Virus record (IMG/VR): IMGVR_UViG_3300012979_000039
Location: 1 to 64,000 of that record
Length of the DNA: 64,000 bases
DNA from: a virus
Lineage: Duplodnaviria > Caudoviricetes
Strand: one strand, 5' to 3'
In this document: one piece after another, positions 3,303-62,028 of the stretch
How the letters are laid out: each line of letters begins with the position of its first letter
Numbering within the stretch: position 1 is the first letter of the stretch
Translations under genes and position numbers: made by a program
Notes under the pieces: model-generated
Seen by the model: only the letters and a program-made list of their open reading frames with translations
Told to the model about the DNA's origin: nothing
The model's database searches: none

Positions 3303-3374
3303 AGCGAGGTGGAGCAGTAGTAGCTCGCTGGGCTCATATCCCAGAGGTCGATAGTGCGAATCTATCCCTCGCTT
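3303..3374 (+). tRNA. tRNA-Met(CAT), initiator-like, with non-canonical loops
   Basis: Acceptor AGCGAGG/CCTCGCT; D stem GAGC/GCTC; anticodon stem CTGGG/CCCAG with loop CTCATAT; T stem GATAG/CTATC with loop TGCGAAT; no encoded CCA. Confidence 0.9.
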
Positions 3375-3404
3375 CGAGGAACAACAGGGCCGAGCCCCAC
3401 AAAA

Positions 3405-25961: not shown

Positions 25962-26867
25962 CTATTCTTCCTTATTTCCGTCAAAGATGTAATCCACCGC
26001 TTTCTGCGCCTGTCCCGCGGCAATCACTATCATCTTCTTGTCATTCTTCAAGGCTTCGAGCCATCCCTGCAAGTATGCAACCGAGTTCTTGAATGCCTTT
26101 TCGCAGTCAATGCCCAAACGGTTAAGCGTCATTGCTGAGCCGATTTCTGCTACAAGCTCCTCCTTTGCGTAGGATACATCTCCGAAGGCGGCCACTCCGT
26201 CAATCTTGCGGTTGCACCTGGTGCCTATTCCCGTACTGTGAGTGAGTTCGTGATAAAGTGTGGAATAGTATTCCTCGACAACCTCATACTGGGAAAGTTC
26301 AGGGACAACGACCTTGTCCTCTTTTGGCGAATAGTAGGCCCTGTCGCTGTGTTCAACTACGAGTGTCAGTCCGTCTTCCCTTTCAACATATTCTTTGGCG
26401 ACCCTTTCCGCTTCCTCTATTGGATTATGGGTGTTGCCCGTCTCCCTCTCTATTTTGCTCTCAATACCCTCGATGTCGTCGATGTGGAAAACATTGTAGA
26501 ATCGAAGAACCGGATAGCCGTAATTAGTTATAACGGTCTTGACCTTGCCCGTCTCTTCCCCCGTTTCTTCGTCAATCTCCTTAACTTTCTTCTGATTGAT
26601 CACGGTATAGAATACTACCATCTTTGCTTTTGCCCCTTTCTTGACCTGACCTCCGAGAGCGGACGCCTGCTTGTATGTGAGGTATTCGCCCGGCTTTCCG
26701 AGCAGCATCTGATTCAGGAGAGAATAAGGTCTGCGGGAGACATAACTGATTGCTTCTTCCGAGCCTCCGCACCAAGGCTTCTGCCAAGGAATGATGCCCT
26801 TCTCCATTTCTGCGATGATGTGTTCAGTAACGATGTCGTAAACATCTACTTTGTTCTTCTGTGCCAT
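25962..26867 (-). CDS. ardC: ArdC-like antirestriction protein (ssDNA-binding + zincin domain)
   Basis: IPWQKPW; RPYSLLNQMLL; YLTYKQA..LGGQVKKG; RAYYSP..D.V..P..SQY; HELTHSTG; YAKEELVAEIGS; YLQGWL. Confidence 0.85.
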   Translation of the reverse strand: MAQKNKVDVYDIVTEHIIAEMEKGIIPWQKPWCGGSEEAISYVSRRPYSLLNQMLLGKPGEYLTYKQASALGGQVKKGAKAKMVVFYTVINQKKVKEIDEETGEETGKVKTVITNYGYPVLRFYNVFHIDDIEGIESKIERETGNTHNPIEEAERVAKEYVEREDGLTLVVEHSDRAYYSPKEDKVVVPELSQYEVVEEYYSTLYHELTHSTGIGTRCNRKIDGVAAFGDVSYAKEELVAEIGSAMTLNRLGIDCEKAFKNSVAYLQGWLEALKNDKKMIVIAAGQAQKAVDYIFDGNKEE

Positions 26868-28807: not shown

Positions 28808-29908
28808 ATGAGTATGCAGACTTCAATGTTTGGTTCATTCATAACCAAGTTCTTCGGTAGTGTAGTTGGCAAGCTCACTGAGCTTTTCAACGGAAGAAAG
28901 GAACAGTCACCTTACCTCTATGAGCGTATGCTTGACGAGGAGTATAGTGCTGACCTCACTTGGAATACTTCCGAGTTCGACAACTCAATCGTAGCGGCGG
29001 ATGTAGTCTCTATGGACTCTTCACTTCCGCTCAAGAAACGCGGCACAATCCGCACAGCAAGCGGTGACATTCCTAAGCTGGGTATCAAGAAGCAGATGCG
29101 CGAGAAAGCTATCTCCGATGTCGCTGTAATGCAGGCAAAGGGAGTCCAGGCTTCAGATATCGCTTCAAAGATTCTCAATAATGTGCCGAAGGTAATCTCT
29201 GGTATCAAGATCCGTCTTGAGATTATGTTCGAGCAGGCTCTCTCGACCGGACTTGTTCTCGTGGCTAACGATACTAACGACGGAACAGGAGTTCGTGCTG
29301 ACTTCGGTTACAAGGCGACGCACAAGTTCAAGGCCACCACAGACTGGAAGAACGTGGGCACAGCACAGCCTGTGACAGACCTTCATAAGATGTTCGACCA
29401 GGCAGACGCTGACGGTGACACCATCGCAAAGGTAATGTTGTCAAAGCAGTACTTCGACCTTGCACGAAAGAGTTTTGAGGTGCGTGAACTTGTAGCCACT
29501 TCACTCAAGCAGACCATCGTGGACGCATCTTATCTTCCTACTCCTACCCGCAAGGCGACTATTGACGCTCTTGAAGAGGAGTTCGGCTGTACTTTCGAGA
29601 TTGTCAACGGTTCATTTGTAACCGAAGACGAGGCTGGCAAGAAGACTACCGTGAAACCTTGGGAGCAGGGTAATGTTGTCGGTCTTACATCTGAAAAGGT
29701 CGGCCGTCTTGTACATGGTACACTTGCCGAGGATATGCGCAGGGTTCCGGGCGTGGCATATGAGAAGTCAGGATTCATCCTCGTTTCCCAGTACAGCCAC
29801 AACGAGCCTTCGCTTGCCGAATTTACCGCAGCACAGGCTCTTGCTATGCCGGTAATCGACAACGGTGGCAATGTATATGTCCTCGACGCAACAGCAGCAG
29901 CAGAGTAG
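28808..29908 (+). CDS. major capsid protein
   Basis: 366 aa; AADVVSMDSSLPLKKR; GDIPKLG; RLEIMFEQALSTG; position in operon. Confidence 0.8.
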   Translation: MSMQTSMFGSFITKFFGSVVGKLTELFNGRKEQSPYLYERMLDEEYSADLTWNTSEFDNSIVAADVVSMDSSLPLKKRGTIRTASGDIPKLGIKKQMREKAISDVAVMQAKGVQASDIASKILNNVPKVISGIKIRLEIMFEQALSTGLVLVANDTNDGTGVRADFGYKATHKFKATTDWKNVGTAQPVTDLHKMFDQADADGDTIAKVMLSKQYFDLARKSFEVRELVATSLKQTIVDASYLPTPTRKATIDALEEEFGCTFEIVNGSFVTEDEAGKKTTVKPWEQGNVVGLTSEKVGRLVHGTLAEDMRRVPGVAYEKSGFILVSQYSHNEPSLAEFTAAQALAMPVIDNGGNVYVLDATAAAE

Positions 29909-32799: not shown

Positions 32800-35700
32800 A
32801 TGGCTGGACTTGAGTTTCATATTACGGCAGAGAACCGTGACTTCATCAACAAGGTGCGTCAGATGCAGGACGCAATGAAGGAAGCATCATCCAAGATTGA
32901 ATCGGAGGGTGATGCCATTGATGGTGTCCTCAGGAAGATAGGACAGGCGGCCGCTGCAATGGGAGTGGGATTCTCCGCACAGAAACTGATTAGCGACATC
33001 GTTAGGGTGCGAGGTGAGTTCCAGCAGTTGGAGATTGCCATGGAGACCATGCTCGGCAGTCAGGAGAAGGCTACGGCACTCATGACGCAGTTGACGCAGA
33101 CAGCGGCCAAGACACCTTTCGGACTGACGGACATAGCACAGGGTGCAAAGCAGTTGCTCGCCTACGGAACTGCATCGGAGAATGTAAACGAGACCCTTGT
33201 CAGACTCGGAAACATCGCATCAGGTCTTTCCATTCCGTTGAATGACCTTGTATATCTCTATGGAACCACCATGACGCAGGGACGCCTCTTCACGCAGGAC
33301 TTGCGTCAGTTCATGGGACGAGGTATCCCGTTGGCTGACGAACTGGCAAAGCAGTTCGGAGTGGCGAAGAGTGCGGTGGGAGAACTCGTGACCGCAGGAA
33401 AGGTCGGATTCCCGGAGGTACAGAAAGCCATCGAGGCCATGACCAACGAAGGCGGCCAGTTCTTCAACCTCATGGAGAAGCAGTCATCATCCCTCACAGG
33501 ACAGATTAGTAATCTGGAAGACGCTTGGGATATGATGCTGAACGAGATCGGAACAAAGACACAAGGCGTTGCATCTGCGGCAATACAAGGTGTTTCTTCC
33601 CTTATAGAGAACTATGAAAGGGTTGGCAAGGTAGTGATGGACATCGCGGTCGCTTACGGCAGTTACAAGGCCGCTACGGTGGCTGTGTCGCTTGTCCAGA
33701 AGATTAACACGCTTGTAATGGAGGAAGCCTCTGTACAGATAGCCTTGGCTGCCGCACAGCACCACAACCTGTCTCTTGCCCAAGCGAAGTCCGCGGCTTC
33801 TACTGTCATTCTCACACGTGCCAAGCAGAAGTTGATAGGAGTGATGAAAGGAGTCGGAAAGGCCTTGACCAATCCTTATGTCCTTGCAACGGCAGCCGTT
33901 GCCGGACTTGCATTCGGCGTGTATAAACTCATTACCTATCAGACGGATGCCGAGAAGGCGCAGAAGAGACTCAACAAGGCATTCGGTGAAGCGTCTGCAT
34001 CCGCAGGTGCTGAGATTCGTGAACTAGACATCCTGAAAGGAAGACTGGCCGCCGCCAAGAAGGGTTCAGTGGAGTATCAGGAGATAAAGGATGAGATTGT
34101 AAGCAAGTACGGCAAGTATGACGAGAACCTTGATGCGGAGATAACCAAGGTAGGTGACCTTACCACCGTCTACGACAACCTTACGACAGCCATTCAGAAT
34201 GCTGCCAACGCGAGAATGTACGAAAAGTACGTCAGCGAAGAGCAGGAGACATATGACAAGGATGTATCCACAAAACTGGAGAAGATTCAGAACAAACTCT
34301 ACGGCAAGAAGGGAATAGATACCGATGCCGCATCGGAAGCGTATTCCAAGATATGGAAGCATATCTTCCAAGGCGAGGAGTTGGACGAAGAGACCGAGGC
34401 GATCATAGCGAAGTTCGACAAAGTCCATAGAGTTGTTCAGGAAGATGGAAGCGTTTTCAAGTATACTACGAATAGTGTAAAAACTCTCATAGGAGGAGTC
34501 CAAGACCTGAATAAAGAATACGACTCATACATTGATAGTGCAAGGGAGAGGTTCGGTCAGGGTGCCTTGGAATCCGACTTCATGAGGGGTGTCAAGAAAC
34601 TCGACAAGCAGCAACTTGAAGACTTGAAGGCGCAACTTGACGAGGGATTGGAGAAATTCAAGGAGACTGGCCAGGGACAGTCGTTCAGCCTTGTCTCAGG
34701 CGAGAAGATTACGCTCGCTACAGAGCAGGAGATAAAGGACGCAATCGGAAGCGTAGACGCCTTCCTTGCAAAGTTAAAGCCGAAGCCAACGGACCCTGAA
34801 CCAGTAGATGAGGACGCCATCAAAAAGGCAAAGAAAGTCGAGAAGAAGGTTGATGAGGATGCATCAAAAGCATTGTTTGAACTCAAGAAGGCTCAGACAG
34901 AAGATGAAATCAAACTCATTGAACTGGAAAAGGAAAGGAAGATTGACGCTCTGAAAGAGGAGCTGGAAGCATACAGGGCAATCTACGAGGCTGCCGGAAT
35001 GGATACCGCTGCCCTTGAAAAGAACTTCGCCACTATGATTGAGGTGGAGGAGAAGATGGCCGCCATAGATATAGCCAAGGTCAAGAAGGAAAAGGATTCC
35101 GAAAGGAAAGCCAAGGAAGCCGAAGAGCATGTGCAGGACCTGCTTGAGACCTATCGTTCATACGAAGATGAGAAGCTTGCACTCAAACGGTCTTACAACA
35201 TGGATACCGCCGTACTCCTTAACAAGTATTTGCAGACGGGAGATGAGCAGTATATGCGTTCCATCGAGGAAAGAAGGAAGGCTTACGTAAAGGCTCTCAA
35301 TCAGCTAGAGAGGGAGATGGGTGGAAGTGACTATCAGCTAGTATTCGGAGACCCGTCCAAGATGACATCGGAAACCATCAGTAAAGCTCTTGATGTCGCG
35401 AAGAAGAAACTGAAGGAGATGGACAAGGAAGCCGACCCGGAATCATATCAGGCTCTTGTGGAGGCGATAGACAGGCTGGAATCGGCCCGTGACACCAATC
35501 CTTTCGAGGGTTGGGATACATCCGTCATGGGATTGATTCAGAGACTGTATCAGATTAAGAAGATTAGGGAAGATATTGCAGACGCGGAGTCCCGTGGAGA
35601 TGACAAGGCCATTGAGAACTACACTGCGAAGTTGGAATCGTCTAAAAAAGACCTTCGTAATGCCCTGATAGGCACGGGTGCCGATGCCTTTGCCAACAGC

Positions 35701-37104
35701 CTCTCCCAAGCAGCAGATGCAATGGCTAAGGTTGCGGAGATATCAGGTGATGTCCAGCTAACAGAAGCGGCAGAGCAGTTGGGAGCATTCTCGCAGAACC
35801 TCTCGGCGGCCGCACAGGGTGCATCTTCCGGCGGATGGATTGGTGCTATTGTAGGAGGTGTGACGGATATGATTTCACAGACTGTGCAGGCATTCACAGA
35901 AGCCAAGGTTCAGGCTGCGGAGGCCGCCGAGAACGCATCTGATTATAGACGGCAGATTGAAATGCTCAAGTATGTGATTGACGAGGCGGACTTCACATCT
36001 GTTTTCGGAGTTGATGAGATGGCAAAGTCCGTTGATGCTTTGGAGAAGGCTTCCCTTGCTGCGGCCGACTATGAGGCGATGATGGCAGAACTGTCATCCA
36101 ATACTCTTACTACATTGTACGAGAAACAGACCCAAAGTAATTCGATAGGTGCTGCAATCTTCGGCGGTTCGTGGGGTTCTCTAAGAAAGGTGGTAAGCAA
36201 TGAGTTCAAGGGTGCATTGGAAGCGTATGAGAAGGGATACTCCCAGTTGGAAGCCATGCAGGTAAAGACCGCAGATTACAGCGGTTGGGCTAACTTCTGG
36301 GGGAAGAAAGACGAGTACACCGCACTAAAAGACCTCGCTCCTGACTTGTGGGGTGCTGACGGAGTGTTCAGCGTGGAGAATGCAAAAGTGTTCCTCGAAA
36401 CCAACACTCAGCTCAATGAAGAGCAGCGTGAGCAGATTCAGAACATCATAGACATGAAGGACGCATATGACGAGGCCACCAAGGTCGTTGACGACTATCT
36501 TGAAAGCCTCTACGGCTCTTGGGGTTCAGACCTTTCAGAAGCAATATCAGATGCTGTCGTGTCAGGTGCGGACGCATGGGATGTCTTTGACGACAAGGCG
36601 TCAGAGGTAATCAAGAACATAGGAAAGCAGATGATATACAATGCCTTCTTCAAGGACATCATGGACTCATATCAGGAAAGTCTGAGGTCAGCGGTCGGAG
36701 ACCCGGAGGCAATGGCTGTCGTTACAGGGCAGTTAGTGGAAAGCCTCAAGAACACCTACACGGCCGCTACGGATGCGACGAAACAGTTCTATGACTATGC
36801 CAAGGATGTTGCAGGAATAGATGTATACGAAGACTCCGAGGCAAGAGAATCTTACAAGAAAAGCGGTATAACTGCATCGCAGGACAGTGTTGACCGTGTG
36901 GACGCAAGGCTGACTACCATGCAGGGACACACTTACACTATCAGTGAGGAATGCCGCAAGACATCGGCTTACAGTTCGCAGATGCTCATGAGGCTGACCG
37001 CCATTGAGAAGAATACCTCATATCTCGCTGCTATCAGTCAGGATCTTGCTTCAATGAGCAGCGACATCAATGACATTAAGAACAAAGGAGTGGTGATGCT
37101 ATGA
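32800..37104 (+). CDS. tape measure protein
   Basis: 1434 aa helical; TAAKTPF...AKQLLAYG; QGRL..QDLRQF..RGIP. Confidence 0.9.
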   Translation: MAGLEFHITAENRDFINKVRQMQDAMKEASSKIESEGDAIDGVLRKIGQAAAAMGVGFSAQKLISDIVRVRGEFQQLEIAMETMLGSQEKATALMTQLTQTAAKTPFGLTDIAQGAKQLLAYGTASENVNETLVRLGNIASGLSIPLNDLVYLYGTTMTQGRLFTQDLRQFMGRGIPLADELAKQFGVAKSAVGELVTAGKVGFPEVQKAIEAMTNEGGQFFNLMEKQSSSLTGQISNLEDAWDMMLNEIGTKTQGVASAAIQGVSSLIENYERVGKVVMDIAVAYGSYKAATVAVSLVQKINTLVMEEASVQIALAAAQHHNLSLAQAKSAASTVILTRAKQKLIGVMKGVGKALTNPYVLATAAVAGLAFGVYKLITYQTDAEKAQKRLNKAFGEASASAGAEIRELDILKGRLAAAKKGSVEYQEIKDEIVSKYGKYDENLDAEITKVGDLTTVYDNLTTAIQNAANARMYEKYVSEEQETYDKDVSTKLEKIQNKLYGKKGIDTDAASEAYSKIWKHIFQGEELDEETEAIIAKFDKVHRVVQEDGSVFKYTTNSVKTLIGGVQDLNKEYDSYIDSARERFGQGALESDFMRGVKKLDKQQLEDLKAQLDEGLEKFKETGQGQSFSLVSGEKITLATEQEIKDAIGSVDAFLAKLKPKPTDPEPVDEDAIKKAKKVEKKVDEDASKALFELKKAQTEDEIKLIELEKERKIDALKEELEAYRAIYEAAGMDTAALEKNFATMIEVEEKMAAIDIAKVKKEKDSERKAKEAEEHVQDLLETYRSYEDEKLALKRSYNMDTAVLLNKYLQTGDEQYMRSIEERRKAYVKALNQLEREMGGSDYQLVFGDPSKMTSETISKALDVAKKKLKEMDKEADPESYQALVEAIDRLESARDTNPFEGWDTSVMGLIQRLYQIKKIREDIADAESRGDDKAIENYTAKLESSKKDLRNALIGTGADAFANSLSQAADAMAKVAEISGDVQLTEAAEQLGAFSQNLSAAAQGASSGGWIGAIVGGVTDMISQTVQAFTEAKVQAAEAAENASDYRRQIEMLKYVIDEADFTSVFGVDEMAKSVDALEKASLAAADYEAMMAELSSNTLTTLYEKQTQSNSIGAAIFGGSWGSLRKVVSNEFKGALEAYEKGYSQLEAMQVKTADYSGWANFWGKKDEYTALKDLAPDLWGADGVFSVENAKVFLETNTQLNEEQREQIQNIIDMKDAYDEATKVVDDYLESLYGSWGSDLSEAISDAVVSGADAWDVFDDKASEVIKNIGKQMIYNAFFKDIMDSYQESLRSAVGDPEAMAVVTGQLVESLKNTYTAATDATKQFYDYAKDVAGIDVYEDSEARESYKKSGITASQDSVDRVDARLTTMQGHTYTISEECRKTSAYSSQMLMRLTAIEKNTSYLAAISQDLASMSSDINDIKNKGVVML

Positions 37105-54805: not shown

Positions 54806-56041
54806 TTACTTGCTTTTTCGGTAATCCTTGCCGTAAAATATATAGTCTATTATCTTTCTGTTTGCGTCATCTACAAGGTCGTTGTCGTAATCTATATATA
54901 TATCAGTTACTTTCAATCCGAAACTGTGCCCCATGCCTCTGCTTATCACCTCTTTGGATATGCCTATCTTCATTGCTACGGTAGCCCAAGTGTGGCGTGC
55001 CCAGTTTGAACTCAAGTCCGGGAAGATGCCTTTCCCAAGAATCTTGCCGCGTTTGCCGAGCGGTCTGCCGATAGCCTTGAGCCCGTCATTGAAATGATGT
55101 AGATAGTCCTTATAGTCGTCATACGAGTCCATAGGGTTGAGCAAGGTACCTCTGCCTTTGTACTTTTCAATGATCGCGATTGCCTCTGGCTCCAGTTTGA
55201 CAGACAGAGGTGTTCCCGTCTTGTTTCTTCGGTAATCTAACCTGCCGTTGGACACCTGCTGTGCAGTAGCAAGGAAAAGGTCTCCGGCATTGATTCCGCG
55301 AAGAAGGAACATGAGGATAAACATATCGCGATACTGCTCTTGATAAGGCTCGCACTTGGCATTTAAGAGGCTTTTGAGTTGTTCCGGCATAAGTGCCTTC
55401 TTCCGCGTATTCTCTTGTCTTAACGGGTACTTTCTGAAAGGATACAAGGTTGTTATGCCCGCGTTGATTGCATCGTTGAATACGGCTCTTATGTTTCTCA
55501 GGTGGATATTCCTGCTGTTCTTCTTCTCTGTCTTGGAACAAAAGGACTCGAACTCCCGAAGATAGTCGTTGGTTATATCCTCAAACGAGCGGGTTGCAAG
55601 ATTAGAGTCATATGCTTCTAACTTTCGGAGAGTATAGGCATACAGCCCTCTTGTCCCGTCATTGCCCTTCAGTTCCATGAAGCGAACAAAACGGAATCGG
55701 AACATATGGCTTTCCTCTATTTTCCGCTTCTTGTCAGGGTCTATGATGTCAATTATCTTGTCACGAAGTTGATATGCAGTTAATCCTCCGCTTTCCCCGT
55801 TTTCCACCAGCCGCAGGATAGCGGAATCTATCTCCAATCTCTTCTTGTTAAGGATAAGATTGATTCTTTTGGCATTCGGATGATTTACCACCTCCTTTCT
55901 TGTCGTACTCCACTGTTGCACTGTTACCTTGATACCTGTATTGATATAAGCCGCCTTGCCGTTCTTCCGTATAGCAAATTTCAGAGGAACCGGTTGATTT
56001 TCCTGAACCGCTCTGGCGTCGAAGTAGATTGTTATTGTCAT
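54806..56041 (-). CDS. int: tyrosine integrase
   Basis: Arm-binding N-terminus (Y.NTGI.V...QW); LRNIRAVFN.A; RGIN..D; YRRNKT; ARHTWAT...MGH...T..Y. Confidence 0.95.
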   Translation of the reverse strand: MTITIYFDARAVQENQPVPLKFAIRKNGKAAYINTGIKVTVQQWSTTRKEVVNHPNAKRINLILNKKRLEIDSAILRLVENGESGGLTAYQLRDKIIDIIDPDKKRKIEESHMFRFRFVRFMELKGNDGTRGLYAYTLRKLEAYDSNLATRSFEDITNDYLREFESFCSKTEKKNSRNIHLRNIRAVFNDAINAGITTLYPFRKYPLRQENTRKKALMPEQLKSLLNAKCEPYQEQYRDMFILMFLLRGINAGDLFLATAQQVSNGRLDYRRNKTGTPLSVKLEPEAIAIIEKYKGRGTLLNPMDSYDDYKDYLHHFNDGLKAIGRPLGKRGKILGKGIFPDLSSNWARHTWATVAMKIGISKEVISRGMGHSFGLKVTDIYIDYDNDLVDDANRKIIDYIFYGKDYRKSK

Positions 56042-56191
56042 ATCCCGCACTGATTTTGCACTTTCTTCTCCCTTAAAATGGAAAAAAATGGAAAGAAATG
56101 CTCTTTTTTTTGACCGGGATAGTCTTGAAATGAGGGGAAAAATAAAGCGATTGACCGTTATAACTAACTGATAATCAATCGCTTTATAGGT

Positions 56192-56236
56192 GTGATTCGG
56201 TTGGGATTCGAACCCAAGACCCACAGCTTAGAAGGT
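56192..56236 (-). other. attP core = 3' half of tRNA-Arg(TCT)
   Basis: Minus strand CCTTCTAAGCTGTGGGTCTTGGGTTCGAATCCCAACCGAATCAC with no 5' half; directly upstream of the integrase. Confidence 0.85.
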
Positions 56237-60011: not shown

Positions 60012-60239
60012 ATGAAAGAATTGTTACATGAATTAAGGCTTGACACTCTGATTCAAGGTATGGATGTCAGCAGTTATATCGCACAGTTGCTTGAGAAGAA
60101 TGACAACCAGGAGATTGAGATAGAGAGAGGCAAGTTGAGTGTTGCGATGCTCAAGCAGATGAATAATCACAGTCGCTTGGTGCTTGATGCTTACAAGTAC
60201 AAGTTGAAGGCTTCTGAATTGAAGAATATAGAACCGTAA
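60012..60239 (+). CDS. hypothetical protein
   Basis: 75-aa helical ORF. Confidence 0.55.
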   Translation: MKELLHELRLDTLIQGMDVSSYIAQLLEKNDNQEIEIERGKLSVAMLKQMNNHSRLVLDAYKYKLKASELKNIEP

Positions 60240-60248
60240 ATAATAACA

Positions 60249-60350
60249 ATCGGGTAGGCTGTACTACCTTAATACGAGGGAATTTTCCACTCGGAAAGAC
60301 TGTCTAACTAGTTGCTATACAGCTACAGCACGCCCCACATCGTTTTATCC
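60249..60350 (+). ncRNA. natural single-guide-like RNA upstream of dead Cas12f
   Basis: Homologous to the tracr at 61520-61575 with compensatory stem changes; loop GCTGTA complementary to TACAGC (60324-60329), followed by a putative guide. Confidence 0.6.
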
Positions 60351-60359
60351 TAAATCGCT

Positions 60360-61511
60360 ATGGTTATCACAAGAAGAATTGAAGTCTTTATCTGCGAGGA
60401 TGATAAAGACCTCCGTAAGTCGTATTACGAAAAACTCTACGACAACAGTAAGGCGGCAGTCGCTACCGCTAATATGGCTATCTCGCATTTGTATATGCTT
60501 GACAATACAACCCCTTATCTCTCGGAAGAAGATAGAGAGAAGATAGTCTATCTCGGAGCAAAGGGAAGTGCTGCAACAAGAAACAATGCACCCTATGTCA
60601 AGGCTTCCGAGATGTTCAAAGGAAAGGCGGATATGGGTATGCTTTCCTGCGTATGTCAGGAAGTACGAAAGGTCTATCAGGACGACCGAAAGAAAGGAAT
60701 GTGGAATAGGTCACTCCGTTCATATAAGGCGAATATGCCAATGCCGTTTAAGGCGGAAAGATTCTGTGATCTTCGCATTTCCGAATATCACGATAAGGAA
60801 GATACTGTCCGCAAAGGGTGCCTCTTCACTCTTATGGGTATCCCTTTCCAATGTAGATTCGGCAGGGATAGGAGTAACAACAGAGTGATTGTGGAAAGAG
60901 TCATAGAGGGAGATTACAAGATGTGTACATCTTCCATTCAGATTGATGGGAAGAAGATATATCTGCTTTTGCGTGTCGATATTCCTGTTCAGGAACATAA
61001 ACTGACAGAGGGTAAACAGATATTCGCCTTCCTTGGAGTAATGAATCCTATTGTATGCACTACGGATATAAATTATAATCTCTGTGGCGAGAGCAAGACC
61101 AAGAGTGTTGTTTGGGAGATAGGAACAAAGGAAGAGTTCAACTATCGCAGAAGGCAGATTCAGGAAGCGGTTTGGAGATGTCAGAAGCAGAACAAATATA
61201 GCACGGGAGGTAAGGGCAGAAAGAGGAAGTGTCAGGCAATAGAACGATACCACGAAAAGGAAATGAACTATGTAGACACGAAACTCCATACTTATTCCCG
61301 TGAACTGGTGGATTTAGCCATCAAGCACAAGTGTAGTGAGATAGTTCTCATGTCGCAGAAGAAGAGGGAAGAGAAAGCCAAGAAGGACAACGCAGTTGAA
61401 GAGAAGAACAATCATGAAGAGTTCGTCCTTCGCAACTGGTCTTACTATGGCTTGAAGGAGAAGATTTCCTACAAGTGTAAGATGGCCGGGATTAAGTTGA
61501 TAGAAGAATAA
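60360..61511 (+). CDS. cas12f: nuclease-dead Cas12f-like protein
   Basis: G.GRKRK; H.YSR.LVD.A.K..C..I; LRNWSYY.L..KI.YK...AGI align to Cas12f; RuvC-I Asp and RuvC-II Glu replaced (AFLGV, IVLMSQ); ends before the Zn finger and RuvC-III. Confidence 0.85.
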   Translation: MVITRRIEVFICEDDKDLRKSYYEKLYDNSKAAVATANMAISHLYMLDNTTPYLSEEDREKIVYLGAKGSAATRNNAPYVKASEMFKGKADMGMLSCVCQEVRKVYQDDRKKGMWNRSLRSYKANMPMPFKAERFCDLRISEYHDKEDTVRKGCLFTLMGIPFQCRFGRDRSNNRVIVERVIEGDYKMCTSSIQIDGKKIYLLLRVDIPVQEHKLTEGKQIFAFLGVMNPIVCTTDINYNLCGESKTKSVVWEIGTKEEFNYRRRQIQEAVWRCQKQNKYSTGGKGRKRKCQAIERYHEKEMNYVDTKLHTYSRELVDLAIKHKCSEIVLMSQKKREEKAKKDNAVEEKNNHEEFVLRNWSYYGLKEKISYKCKMAGIKLIEE

Positions 61512-61519
61512 AGACAATA

Positions 61520-61605
61520 TATCGGGGTGGTTGCACACCCTTAACGGGAGGATTTCTCACTCCTGAAATACCTTTACGAAAGTGGTTTGTAGGTAGTTAT
61601 GTCGG
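61520..61605 (+). ncRNA. tracrRNA candidate
   Basis: GGGTG-GTTGCA-CACCC hairpin whose loop complements the repeat end TGCAAC; AATACCTT complements AAGGTAT in the repeat. Confidence 0.7.
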
Positions 61606-61609
61606 ATAG

Positions 61610-61775
61610 GTTGTAAATACCTATAAAACTTAAGGTATATGCAACTCCTCTGTGTTTATGGAAAATTCAATCTGTTGTAAATACCTATAAAAACTCAAGG
61701 TATATGCAACATCGGAGAAAACTTGCCCTCATAAAGACGGTTGTAAACACCTATAAAATTCAAGGTATATGCAAC
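61610..61775 (+). CRISPR. mini CRISPR array: 3 repeats (36-37 bp), 2 spacers (28, 29 bp)
   Basis: GTTGTAAATACCTATAAAACTTAAGGTATATGCAAC at 61610-61645, 61674-61710, 61740-61775; GTTG...ATGCAAC ends as in type V-F; partial ATATGCAAC at 61793-61801. Confidence 0.92.
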
Positions 61776-61848
61776 AACAGCCACAAACTACAATATGCAA
61801 CGAGGACAATTTTATCTTATCTAAACAAATTGTTTAATAAATAGGCAA

Positions 61849-62028
61849 ATGGAAATATTAAAAAAAGGAACAACTGAACATTTCCCGAAAAGGAAGTTTA
61901 CTTGCCCCGACTGTGGGTGTGTATATATAGCGAAATGGAACGAGGTAAATAAGTTTCCAATACCTCATACTATTTGCCCGACCTGTGAAAGACAAATAGA
62001 TTGGGCGGACGGTGCGGATATAGAATAA
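61849..62028 (+). CDS. zinc-ribbon protein (59 aa, not in ORF track)
   Basis: CPDCG...CPTC. Confidence 0.7.
   Translation: MEILKKGTTEHFPKRKFTCPDCGCVYIAKWNEVNKFPIPHTICPTCERQIDWADGADIE

Follow-up and report, generated by a model that had tools for sequence, protein, structure and literature searches.

What would a phage do with a Cas12f protein that appears unable to cut DNA and that lies between guide RNAs of its own? The question is raised by a locus in the DNA analysed here, bases 1 to 64,000 (hereafter the window) of the IMG/VR virus record IMGVR_UViG_3300012979_000039, which is 73,054 bases long and was rated complete by CheckV. An initial annotation had described at 60360–61801 a nuclease-dead Cas12f (dCas12f) with a tracr-like RNA and a mini-array. 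A phage-encoded dead Cas12f with guide RNAs and a mini-array of its own was indeed found, and the interval covered the gene and the array; it missed a second guide-RNA scaffold (scaffold A) and a small gene, orf75, both upstream, as well as a pseudoknot code. The cassette consists of orf75, scaffold A with a guide, the dCas12f gene, and scaffold B with the mini CRISPR array, and its products are predicted to form an RNA-guided DNA-binding complex that does not cleave. We consider it probable, though well short of certain, that the cassette serves as a non-cutting RNA-guided DNA binder which blocks transcription or replication of foreign elements, most likely rival phages. This reading draws on the lack of a sigma-E factor, on CRISPR-like changing spacers, and on a spacer of a relative that matched another phage.

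The dCas12f gene (60360–61511, plus strand) encoded a protein of 383 amino acids (aa), characterized by homology, fold and alignment as a nuclease-dead, C-terminally truncated Cas12f. In a phmmer search of the PDB the best match was 9n9c, "Nuclease-deactivated Cas12f" of Flagellimonas (expectation value, E, 2.9e-54; query residues 4–381, chain residues 9–363), and active Cas12f chains ranked after it at E values of 1e-34 or weaker. An AlphaFold model (predicted local distance difference test, pLDDT, 82.8; predicted template modelling score, pTM, 0.70) gave the same order in Foldseek, with 9n9c and 9n9m first (best 9n9c_A, E 9.7e-31, template modelling score 0.63/0.68), followed by AsCas12f, CnCas12f and other active Cas12f chains. 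The NCBIfam model guided_TnpB matched with an E value of 1.5e-20, below the family cut-off. In an alignment with Cas12f representatives of 480–520 aa, the column of the RuvC-I aspartate was occupied by Phe224 (IFAFLGV versus VGVDLGI) and that of the RuvC-II glutamate by Met331 (IVLMSQ versus IKMELL); a HMMER pairwise alignment placed Ser332 instead of Met331 at the latter position, both residues being non-acidic. The C-terminus was located about 25 residues past RNWSYY, and thus the Zn finger and the RuvC-III motif ADxNAA were missing. These were the same two substitutions and the same deletion as had been annotated initially. The lid region was about 10 residues longer than that of 9n9c in the phmmer alignment. 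Homology, fold, replaced catalytic residues and C-terminal truncation together place the predicted protein in the nuclease-dead Cas12f lineage. By homology with the solved Flagellimonas complex, it probably acts as a dimer on one guide RNA with a scaffold of about 55–80 nucleotides (nt).

Two paralogous guide-RNA scaffolds were located on the plus strand, scaffold A at 60249–60329 and scaffold B at 61521–61609, each with a 5-bp hairpin carrying a 6-nt loop and a second hairpin, GAGG...CACUC. Scaffold A comprised hairpin 1 (GGTAG/CTACC, loop GCTGTA at 60258–60263), hairpin 2, a linker and the pseudoknot strand TACAGC in tandem (60318–60329), and scaffold B comprised hairpin 1 (GGGTG/CACCC, loop GTTGCA at 61530–61535), hairpin 2 and a degenerate repeat-like hairpin, this 3′ part being alignable with the array repeat. 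Over 23 aligned copies from the window and its relatives, pairing in hairpins 1 and 2 reached 98%, and 8 of the 11 pairs showed compensatory changes, versus 36–56% pairing in controls in which the partner was slid by 1–3 columns. A covariance model (CM R1) built from these copies gave exactly two strong matches in the window, at 60249–60303 (61.4 bits, E 3e-17) and 61521–61573 (66.8 bits, E 6e-19), found new copies in loci outside the training set, and detected another 160 copies when 77 related metagenome loci were scanned, each of them sharing its strand with the dCas12f gene. It also matched the single-guide RNA (sgRNA) site of an Fta-type rpoE-dcas12f operon (L025:5113–5161, 27.9 bits), which puts the phage scaffolds into one RNA lineage with the dCas12f guide RNA already published. 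In that RNA, four paired regions make up the core, and residues 77–90 form a 14-nt guide at the 3′ end (PMC12259091). Rfam held no family for this RNA. The tracr-like RNA noted earlier, at 61521–61609, is one of these two paralogous elements, both of which are more likely guide-RNA scaffolds than a classical anti-repeat trans-activating CRISPR RNA (tracrRNA). An A-rich box (AATAA...) was present about 8–12 nt upstream of nearly every scaffold, at 60238–60248 and 61511–61520 in the window and likewise in the relatives; it may act in transcription as part of a promoter, may mark a processing site, or may be mere stop-codon context.

The hairpin-1 loop was complementary, scaffold by scaffold, to the 6 nt directly 5′ of each guide. 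In the window, loop GCUGUA of scaffold A was complementary to UACAGC 3′ of the scaffold, and loop GUUGCA of scaffold B to UGCAAC, the end of every repeat in its array. The combinations counted were GCUGUA with UACAGC (31) or, through a G-U wobble, with UGCAGC (14), GUUGCA with UGCAAC (6 of 6), GCUGCA with UGCAGC (7 of 8) and GCUGUG with CACAGC (14). The pairing covaried over four loop types and held even in a locus with five scaffolds, which is strong comparative evidence for a predicted loop-to-3′-strand pseudoknot and indicates that the scaffold types are orthogonal. The loop would form a 6-bp pseudoknot just 5′ of the guide, and the two types in the window (GCUGUA-UACAGC and GUUGCA-UGCAAC) may serve two separate guide sets on one protein. 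One other contact was considered, in which GTTGCTATAC of scaffold A would serve as an anti-repeat towards the array repeat. It was rejected, since repeats in the relatives usually have ...TATACAGC as their 3′ end and this sequence provides the pseudoknot partner of the loop in scaffold A itself. The duplex of scaffold B with the repeat (-20.4 kcal/mol versus -12.5 ± 2.5 for shuffles) reflects the repeat-like 3′ part of the scaffold, and the sole covarying scaffold-repeat contact was that of the 6-nt loop to the repeat end. The termini of each repeat (e.g. 61610–61645) were also self-complementary (GUUGUA...UGCAAC), so the pseudoknot strand can pair with the 5′ end of its own repeat or with the scaffold loop.

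The mini CRISPR array, read from the sequence, occupied 61610–61801 on the plus strand. It contained full repeats at 61610–61645, 61674–61710 (37 nt) and 61740–61775, which enclosed spacers g1 (28 nt, 61646–61673) and g2 (29 nt, 61711–61739), followed by the 18-nt spacer g3 (61776–61793), a fourth, minimal repeat TATGCAAC that equals the last 8 bases of the repeat (61794–61801), and a terminal guide position g4 (GAGGACAATTTTATC..., 61802–61826), the use of which is uncertain. The three type V-F-like repeats and two spacers of the initial annotation were found as described, the minimal repeat with its 18-nt spacer having been missed. Upstream, scaffold A was followed directly by its pseudoknot strand and guide g0 (ACGCCCCACATCGTTTTATCC..., 60330–60352, plus strand), the terminal guide of cassette A, and this arrangement constitutes a natural single-guide form; g0 extended into the start codon of the dCas12f gene and the ribosome-binding region before it.

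Comparison of spacer content across relatives, which had been suggested as a check, revealed differences among close ones. In L021, a relative with 95% identity, cassette A had one more repeat-spacer unit than that of the window, and the leader-proximal spacer of cassette B differed, while g3 and the minimal repeat were kept and g4 was mostly conserved. Among near-identical phages (L074 versus L076, L083 versus L084, and 13 IMG/VR contigs), the trailer spacer was likewise common and the leader-proximal spacers differed, a pattern of polarised spacer gain. Family-wide, the spacing of pseudoknot strands had a sharp peak at 65–67 nt, equal to a 36-nt repeat plus a spacer of 29–30 nt, and 169 unique spacers were validated, most of them in one locus only. 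CRISPR-type spacers of 28–30 nt that turn over at the leader end would fit foreign DNA as the target. A possible relation of spacers to gene starts was not convincing, with ATG in 69 spacers versus 61 ± 5.5 after shuffling and CAT in 75 versus 61 ± 6. Two other layouts were seen in relatives. L006 (7790–10200) and L008 (3350–6000) possessed five or six scaffolds, runs of minimal repeats of 8–12 nt and guides of only 11–22 nt, a layout intermediate between CRISPR arrays and tandem single guides; in L028/L029 (3760–3900), adjacent spacers one base apart (GCTCTCCGCTGCACG... versus GTTCTCCGCTGCACG...) represented a unit duplicated within the array.

The relatives supplied one candidate target. One leader-proximal spacer of L109 matched a non-array site in another viral contig, L119, at 28 of 30 positions, 26 of them contiguous; the site was in the sense orientation near the start of a small open reading frame (ORF) of unknown function, with the 5′ flank ...TTTCT, and the tape measure genes of this contig and of the window fell into one PHROG family. 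The chance of a 24-mer match there is below 1e-3 by a rough estimate of ours, not a tool result, that assumes about 1e11 bases. Otherwise, three further spacer scans of IMG/VR matched only arrays of related phages, and 200 candidate spacers compared with all loci examined matched only array copies and one false unit inside a gene. Nothing convincing was obtained for the relatives' arrays among GenBank phages; a match to megaphage LR756500.1 was discarded, as neither a scaffold nor an array was present there.

The window's own guides gave less, and several results weigh against a role in blocking rival phages. Guides g0 to g4 matched nothing in the 73-kb phage beyond chance (at most 3 mismatches in 16 nt, against shuffles), 20-mers of g1 and g2 had 0 matches in IMG/VR, blastn of the window array against GenBank phages gave no match, and an 18-mer of g0 had two one-mismatch matches in 401 Prevotellaceae-family genomes, both in coding sequence and at chance rate. 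The L109–L119 protospacer is a single case, its source clade having about 61% identity with the window protein, and a target-adjacent motif (TAM) is not derivable from one protospacer. Furthermore, g0 is identical in the window, L003 and L021, and g3 and g4 are conserved among them, which fits fixed regulatory targets better than immunity; the array repeats may join the scaffold in cis or in trans; and repression, the proposed outcome, follows only from there being neither nuclease nor activator. Rival phages would thus be only the presumed targets of the window's spacers, and the silencing or activation of host or competitor genes put forward in the initial annotation stays conjectural, the spacer check having given no target for these spacers.

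The conserved guides bring in another explanation, that the cassette is a regulator acting in lysogenic conversion, its guides repressing host genes such as receptors, defence systems or transporters in the way a prophage TldR represses flagellin. It is established that phages can encode nuclease-dead, RNA-guided proteins which repress host genes (TldR: 10.1101/2023.11.30.569447; PMC13418256), and CRISPR-linked dCas12f with guides matching efflux promoters has been reported (Hoffmann et al., PMC13472631); the conservation of g0, g3 and g4 also counts in favour. However, when the L011 arrays were compared with the genome of their host, matches outside the prophage did not exceed chance (E ≥ 0.1), the g0 matches in the 401 genomes were no better, and most spacers are unique and turning over, unlike fixed regulatory guides. 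We regard host-gene control as rather unlikely, though it deserves consideration.

The lack of an activator was examined through sigma factors. Sigma70_r2 and Sigma70_r4_2 had no match in the whole 73-kb phage record, in agreement with the initial annotation, which had seen no sigma factor gene, and the neighbours of dCas12f in the relatives were phage genes; in the control locus L025, rpoE was directly upstream of dcas12f. When the 260-aa sigma-E protein of that operon was used as the query, five lysogen genomes with a phage-type dCas12f, the window's own host not being among them, contained only generic extracytoplasmic function (ECF) sigma factors (20–28% identity over residues 15–190, in ORFs of 175–208 aa) and no sigma-E with the dCas12f-docking C-terminal domain. 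This domain docks on the truncated RuvC of dCas12f (PMC12259091), and its absence from the five genomes weakens the earlier suggestion of borrowed host factors as far as a host ECF sigma is concerned.

The cassette does possess another conserved small protein. The product of orf75 (60012–60239, plus strand, directly upstream of scaffold A) is a 75-aa helical protein, predicted as two helices (pLDDT 86.9), with no Pfam, PHROG or fold match. Its homologues (72–78 residues, 55–97% identity) immediately preceded a scaffold in the window, L021, L006, L004 and L011, and kept this place in different phage backbones. A profile hidden Markov model (HMM) detected orf75 in 68 of 87 loci, always on the plus strand, and 56 of 69 copies were followed by a scaffold 14–88 nt downstream (median, 30 nt); a divergent copy was visible by eye in a human-gut clade, and the family includes 460 proteins on the same contigs as dCas12f. 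The gene is therefore part of the cassette, and its product is a candidate accessory protein.

The complex could instead be an RNA-guided activator, in which RNA polymerase is recruited through orf75 or a host sigma factor docked on the truncated RuvC. The closest solved relative is an activator-type dCas12f, the truncated RuvC is the surface complemented by the sigma-E C-terminal domain (PMC12259091), the scaffold RNA is homologous to that of the rpoE-dcas12f operon, and orf75 is tightly linked. Such activation is improbable in view of the sigma factor results, the lack of similarity between orf75 and sigma-E, the guides of variable sequence and 28–30 nt instead of a fixed 14 nt, and the phylogeny, in which the phage clade was supported (Shimodaira–Hasegawa-like approximate likelihood ratio test, SH-aLRT, 97) and excluded the Fta-type sigma-E-linked representatives, in a quick maximum-likelihood tree with unresolved deep branches.

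The family to which the protein belongs is large. It had 830 members in a set of 5.8 billion proteins, more than 120 of them with at least 66% identity and nearly all with 377–386 residues. The contexts of the relatives were phage or prophage, for example a Mu-like portal with a protease, or an S24 repressor with ERF and Mom; contigs of more distant representatives were too short to show gene context. The genomes in which a phage-type dCas12f was present belonged to Prevotella or Prevotellaceae; one of them was that of an isolate, Prevotella sp. P2-180. Across the different phage backbones, orf75 and the scaffolds were the only conserved neighbours. The ratio of nonsynonymous to synonymous substitution rates (omega, dN/dS) of dCas12f was 0.10 in the comparison with the 95%-identical relative and had a median of 0.098 across 123 pairs, which shows purifying selection, and 74 of 76 complete copies in relatives were intact. 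The two broken copies, in L096 and L103, had internal stop codons that could be decay or assembly errors.

These data bear on two further explanations. An inactive type V-F remnant carried passively by the phage would account for the dead active site, the absence of adaptation genes, the tiny array and the internal stops in two relatives. Yet the locus does not show in relatives the decay that had been named as a sign against function: omega is about 0.1, nearly all copies are intact, the scaffolds keep their pairing through many compensatory changes, and hundreds of members persist in diverse phage backbones, so that passive carriage is hardly credible. Alternatively, the dead protein might find the target and leave its destruction to another nuclease, be it of the phage, of the host, or one restored by a RuvC-completing factor. 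The arrays are immune-like in spacer length and turnover, and in the window a RecE-like exonuclease lies 0.7 kb upstream; nevertheless, neither retained RuvC position has an acidic residue, RuvC-III was absent in every clade member seen, and no nuclease is among the neighbours conserved across backbones. Guide-directed cutting of this kind is very unlikely.

How spacers would be gained, perhaps with the help of the host as proposed in the initial annotation, is a further difficulty for a role against rival phages. Cas1 (PF01867) had no match in the phage record by HMM search, as stated in the initial annotation, and no cas1, cas2 or cas4 was found among the called neighbours in the relatives, Cas2 and Cas4 not having been searched by HMM. 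Cas1 was present in three of the five lysogen genomes and lacking in two, which leaves the source of new spacers unexplained and counts against this role.

Binding-type interference with foreign elements remains the preferred reading. Presumably expressed from the early rightward operon of the phage, the complex would attach by R-loop formation to the DNA of competitor phages or of co-resident elements and thereby block transcription or replication, a natural interference similar to CRISPR interference (CRISPRi), without cutting. Cas12c and Cas12m, which belong to other subtypes and are bacterial, are naturally DNase-free and protect by binding, and they provide a precedent for interference by binding instead of cutting.

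Varied degrees of likeness were observed with known systems. The dCas12f-sigma-E systems of Bacteroidota are chromosomal, act with an ECF-sigma partner and switch on nutrient-uptake genes (Hoffmann et al., Nature 2026, PMC13472631; structure PMC12259091, PDB 9n9c/9n9m). The window cassette shares with them a truncated nuclease-dead Cas12f of about 365–385 aa, these proteins being its best sequence and fold match, a homologous guide-RNA scaffold, and, in scaffold A followed directly by the guide, the single-guide form. Unlike these systems, it is phage-borne, with no rpoE in the window operon, the phage or the hosts searched; its family has CRISPR arrays with variable spacers of 28–30 nt in place of a fixed guide of about 14 nt, and several scaffold types with distinct pseudoknot codes; the linked 75-aa ORF takes the place of sigma-E or a helix-turn-helix (HTH) protein; and its clade is separate in the tree. 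The guides of dCas12f-sigma-E correspond to sites upstream of host susCD, two-component genes or their own operon, with a 5′-G TAM, whereas no self match above chance was seen for the window guides, nor any host match above chance for g0 or for the L011 arrays.

A cluster of dCas12f without rpoE that is associated with CRISPR arrays has been described from bioinformatic data only (Hoffmann et al., PMC13472631, Extended Data Fig. 1a,b). It also combines a dead Cas12f, neighbouring arrays and a covarying guide element upstream of the array, and repression was proposed there. The example given is a chromosomal Chitinophagaceae metagenome-assembled genome with an efflux promoter as the target, while the window cassette is phage-borne, the comparison being made by description; for that cluster there was no description of carriage by phages, of a 75-aa ORF, of more than one scaffold or of spacers that turn over. 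TldR proteins are TnpB-like nuclease-dead repressors, partly prophage-encoded (10.1101/2023.11.30.569447; PMC13418256; PMC13622181), and resemble the window protein as phage-carried, nuclease-dead, RNA-guided DNA binders; TldR acts as a transcription factor. They descend directly from TnpB and use an omega-RNA with one fixed guide against host genes and no array, whereas the window protein is of the Cas12f lineage, its nearest relatives being Cas12f and dCas12f and not TnpB, and has an array.

With type V-F Cas12f nucleases (PDB 9nzo, 8hr5, 7wju, 7l48) the cassette shares the fold, a dimer-type architecture by homology, 36-nt repeats and spacers of about 30 nt. Unlike it, these nucleases have an active RuvC, a Zn finger, a long tracrRNA with anti-repeat and usually cas1, cas2 and cas4. 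Judged as a type V-F system, the window has a regular array, no active RuvC effector and no Cas1 that could be found. Medvedeva et al. are said to have described virus-borne mini-arrays in 2019. In huge phages, type V-F variants and adaptation-less CRISPR systems have been reported (Al-Shayeb et al. 2020, PMC7162821). Common to these and to the window is a type V effector that a phage carries with a small array and no Cas1 or Cas2, although the huge-phage effectors mostly keep their catalytic residues. In the literature searched, no description of a phage-encoded dCas12f was found. The cassette is thus a variant of the dCas12f systems published in 2026, and what is new is phage carriage, changing arrays, the pseudoknot code and the companion gene.

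The phage itself encoded capsid, tape measure, tail and integrase genes, among them a major head protein (28808–29908), a tape measure protein (32800–37104), a tail protein of 2307 aa and a tyrosine integrase (54806–56224, minus strand). The rightward early block contained an HTH protein, a RecT-like protein and a RecE-like exonuclease, and the dCas12f cassette was located at its end, on the same strand, after the repressor/HTH, RecT-like and RecE-like genes; the placement in the early operon made initially is therefore well founded. In a scan for sigma-70 promoters and terminators, a method unsuited to Bacteroidota promoters, promoter-like sites were fewer than in shuffles and absent from the plus strand. 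Just upstream of the integrase start, a stretch of 45 nt (56191–56235) recurred without a change as the 3′ end of tRNA-Arg(TCT) in many Prevotella-family genomes, which indicates the attachment core of a temperate phage, and its position there indicates that the record is the excised or virion form. The match of the phage in the 401 Prevotellaceae-family genomes was limited to this 45-nt core. The phage is thus a temperate one of Prevotella type.

Additional genes were observed in the phage and near the cassette. A 59-aa zinc-ribbon ORF with CxxC...CxxC (61849–62028) was located 3′ of the array; in L003 a similar CxxC ORF was also 3′ of the array, but about 390 nt away and with another ORF between. 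In L022 (1695–3294), a relative with 82% identity, two N6_N4 DNA methyltransferase genes were downstream of the cassette, after one small ORF. The phage also carried a tRNA-Met(CAT) gene (3303–3375) and a 301-aa protein (25962–26867, minus strand) that matched the PHROG anti-restriction family phrog_7245 (E 1.9e-70).

A broader proposal is that a widespread family of temperate Bacteroidota phages runs its own adaptive, non-cutting CRISPR, with a dead Cas12f, several orthogonal scaffold/pseudoknot channels, spacer gain without a phage Cas1, and orf75 replacing sigma-E on the truncated RuvC to give a new outcome (silencing of rival phages or prophages, anti-termination or activation); this full combination is speculative, and we would put it forward as a tentative possibility. 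The same lineage of dCas12f and guide RNA is carried, with no sigma factor, by temperate phages of the gut and the rumen, and it forms a concrete intermediate between CRISPR-Cas12f immunity and single-guide regulators. Its proteins are very small (about 380 aa), and its pairs of guide and scaffold, orthogonal by nature, could be used to control several Bacteroidota genes at once. If the binding-only reading is true, phages of an abundant gut genus would use natural CRISPRi against competitors or hosts, which would bear on phage-phage conflict and on prophage control of Prevotella.

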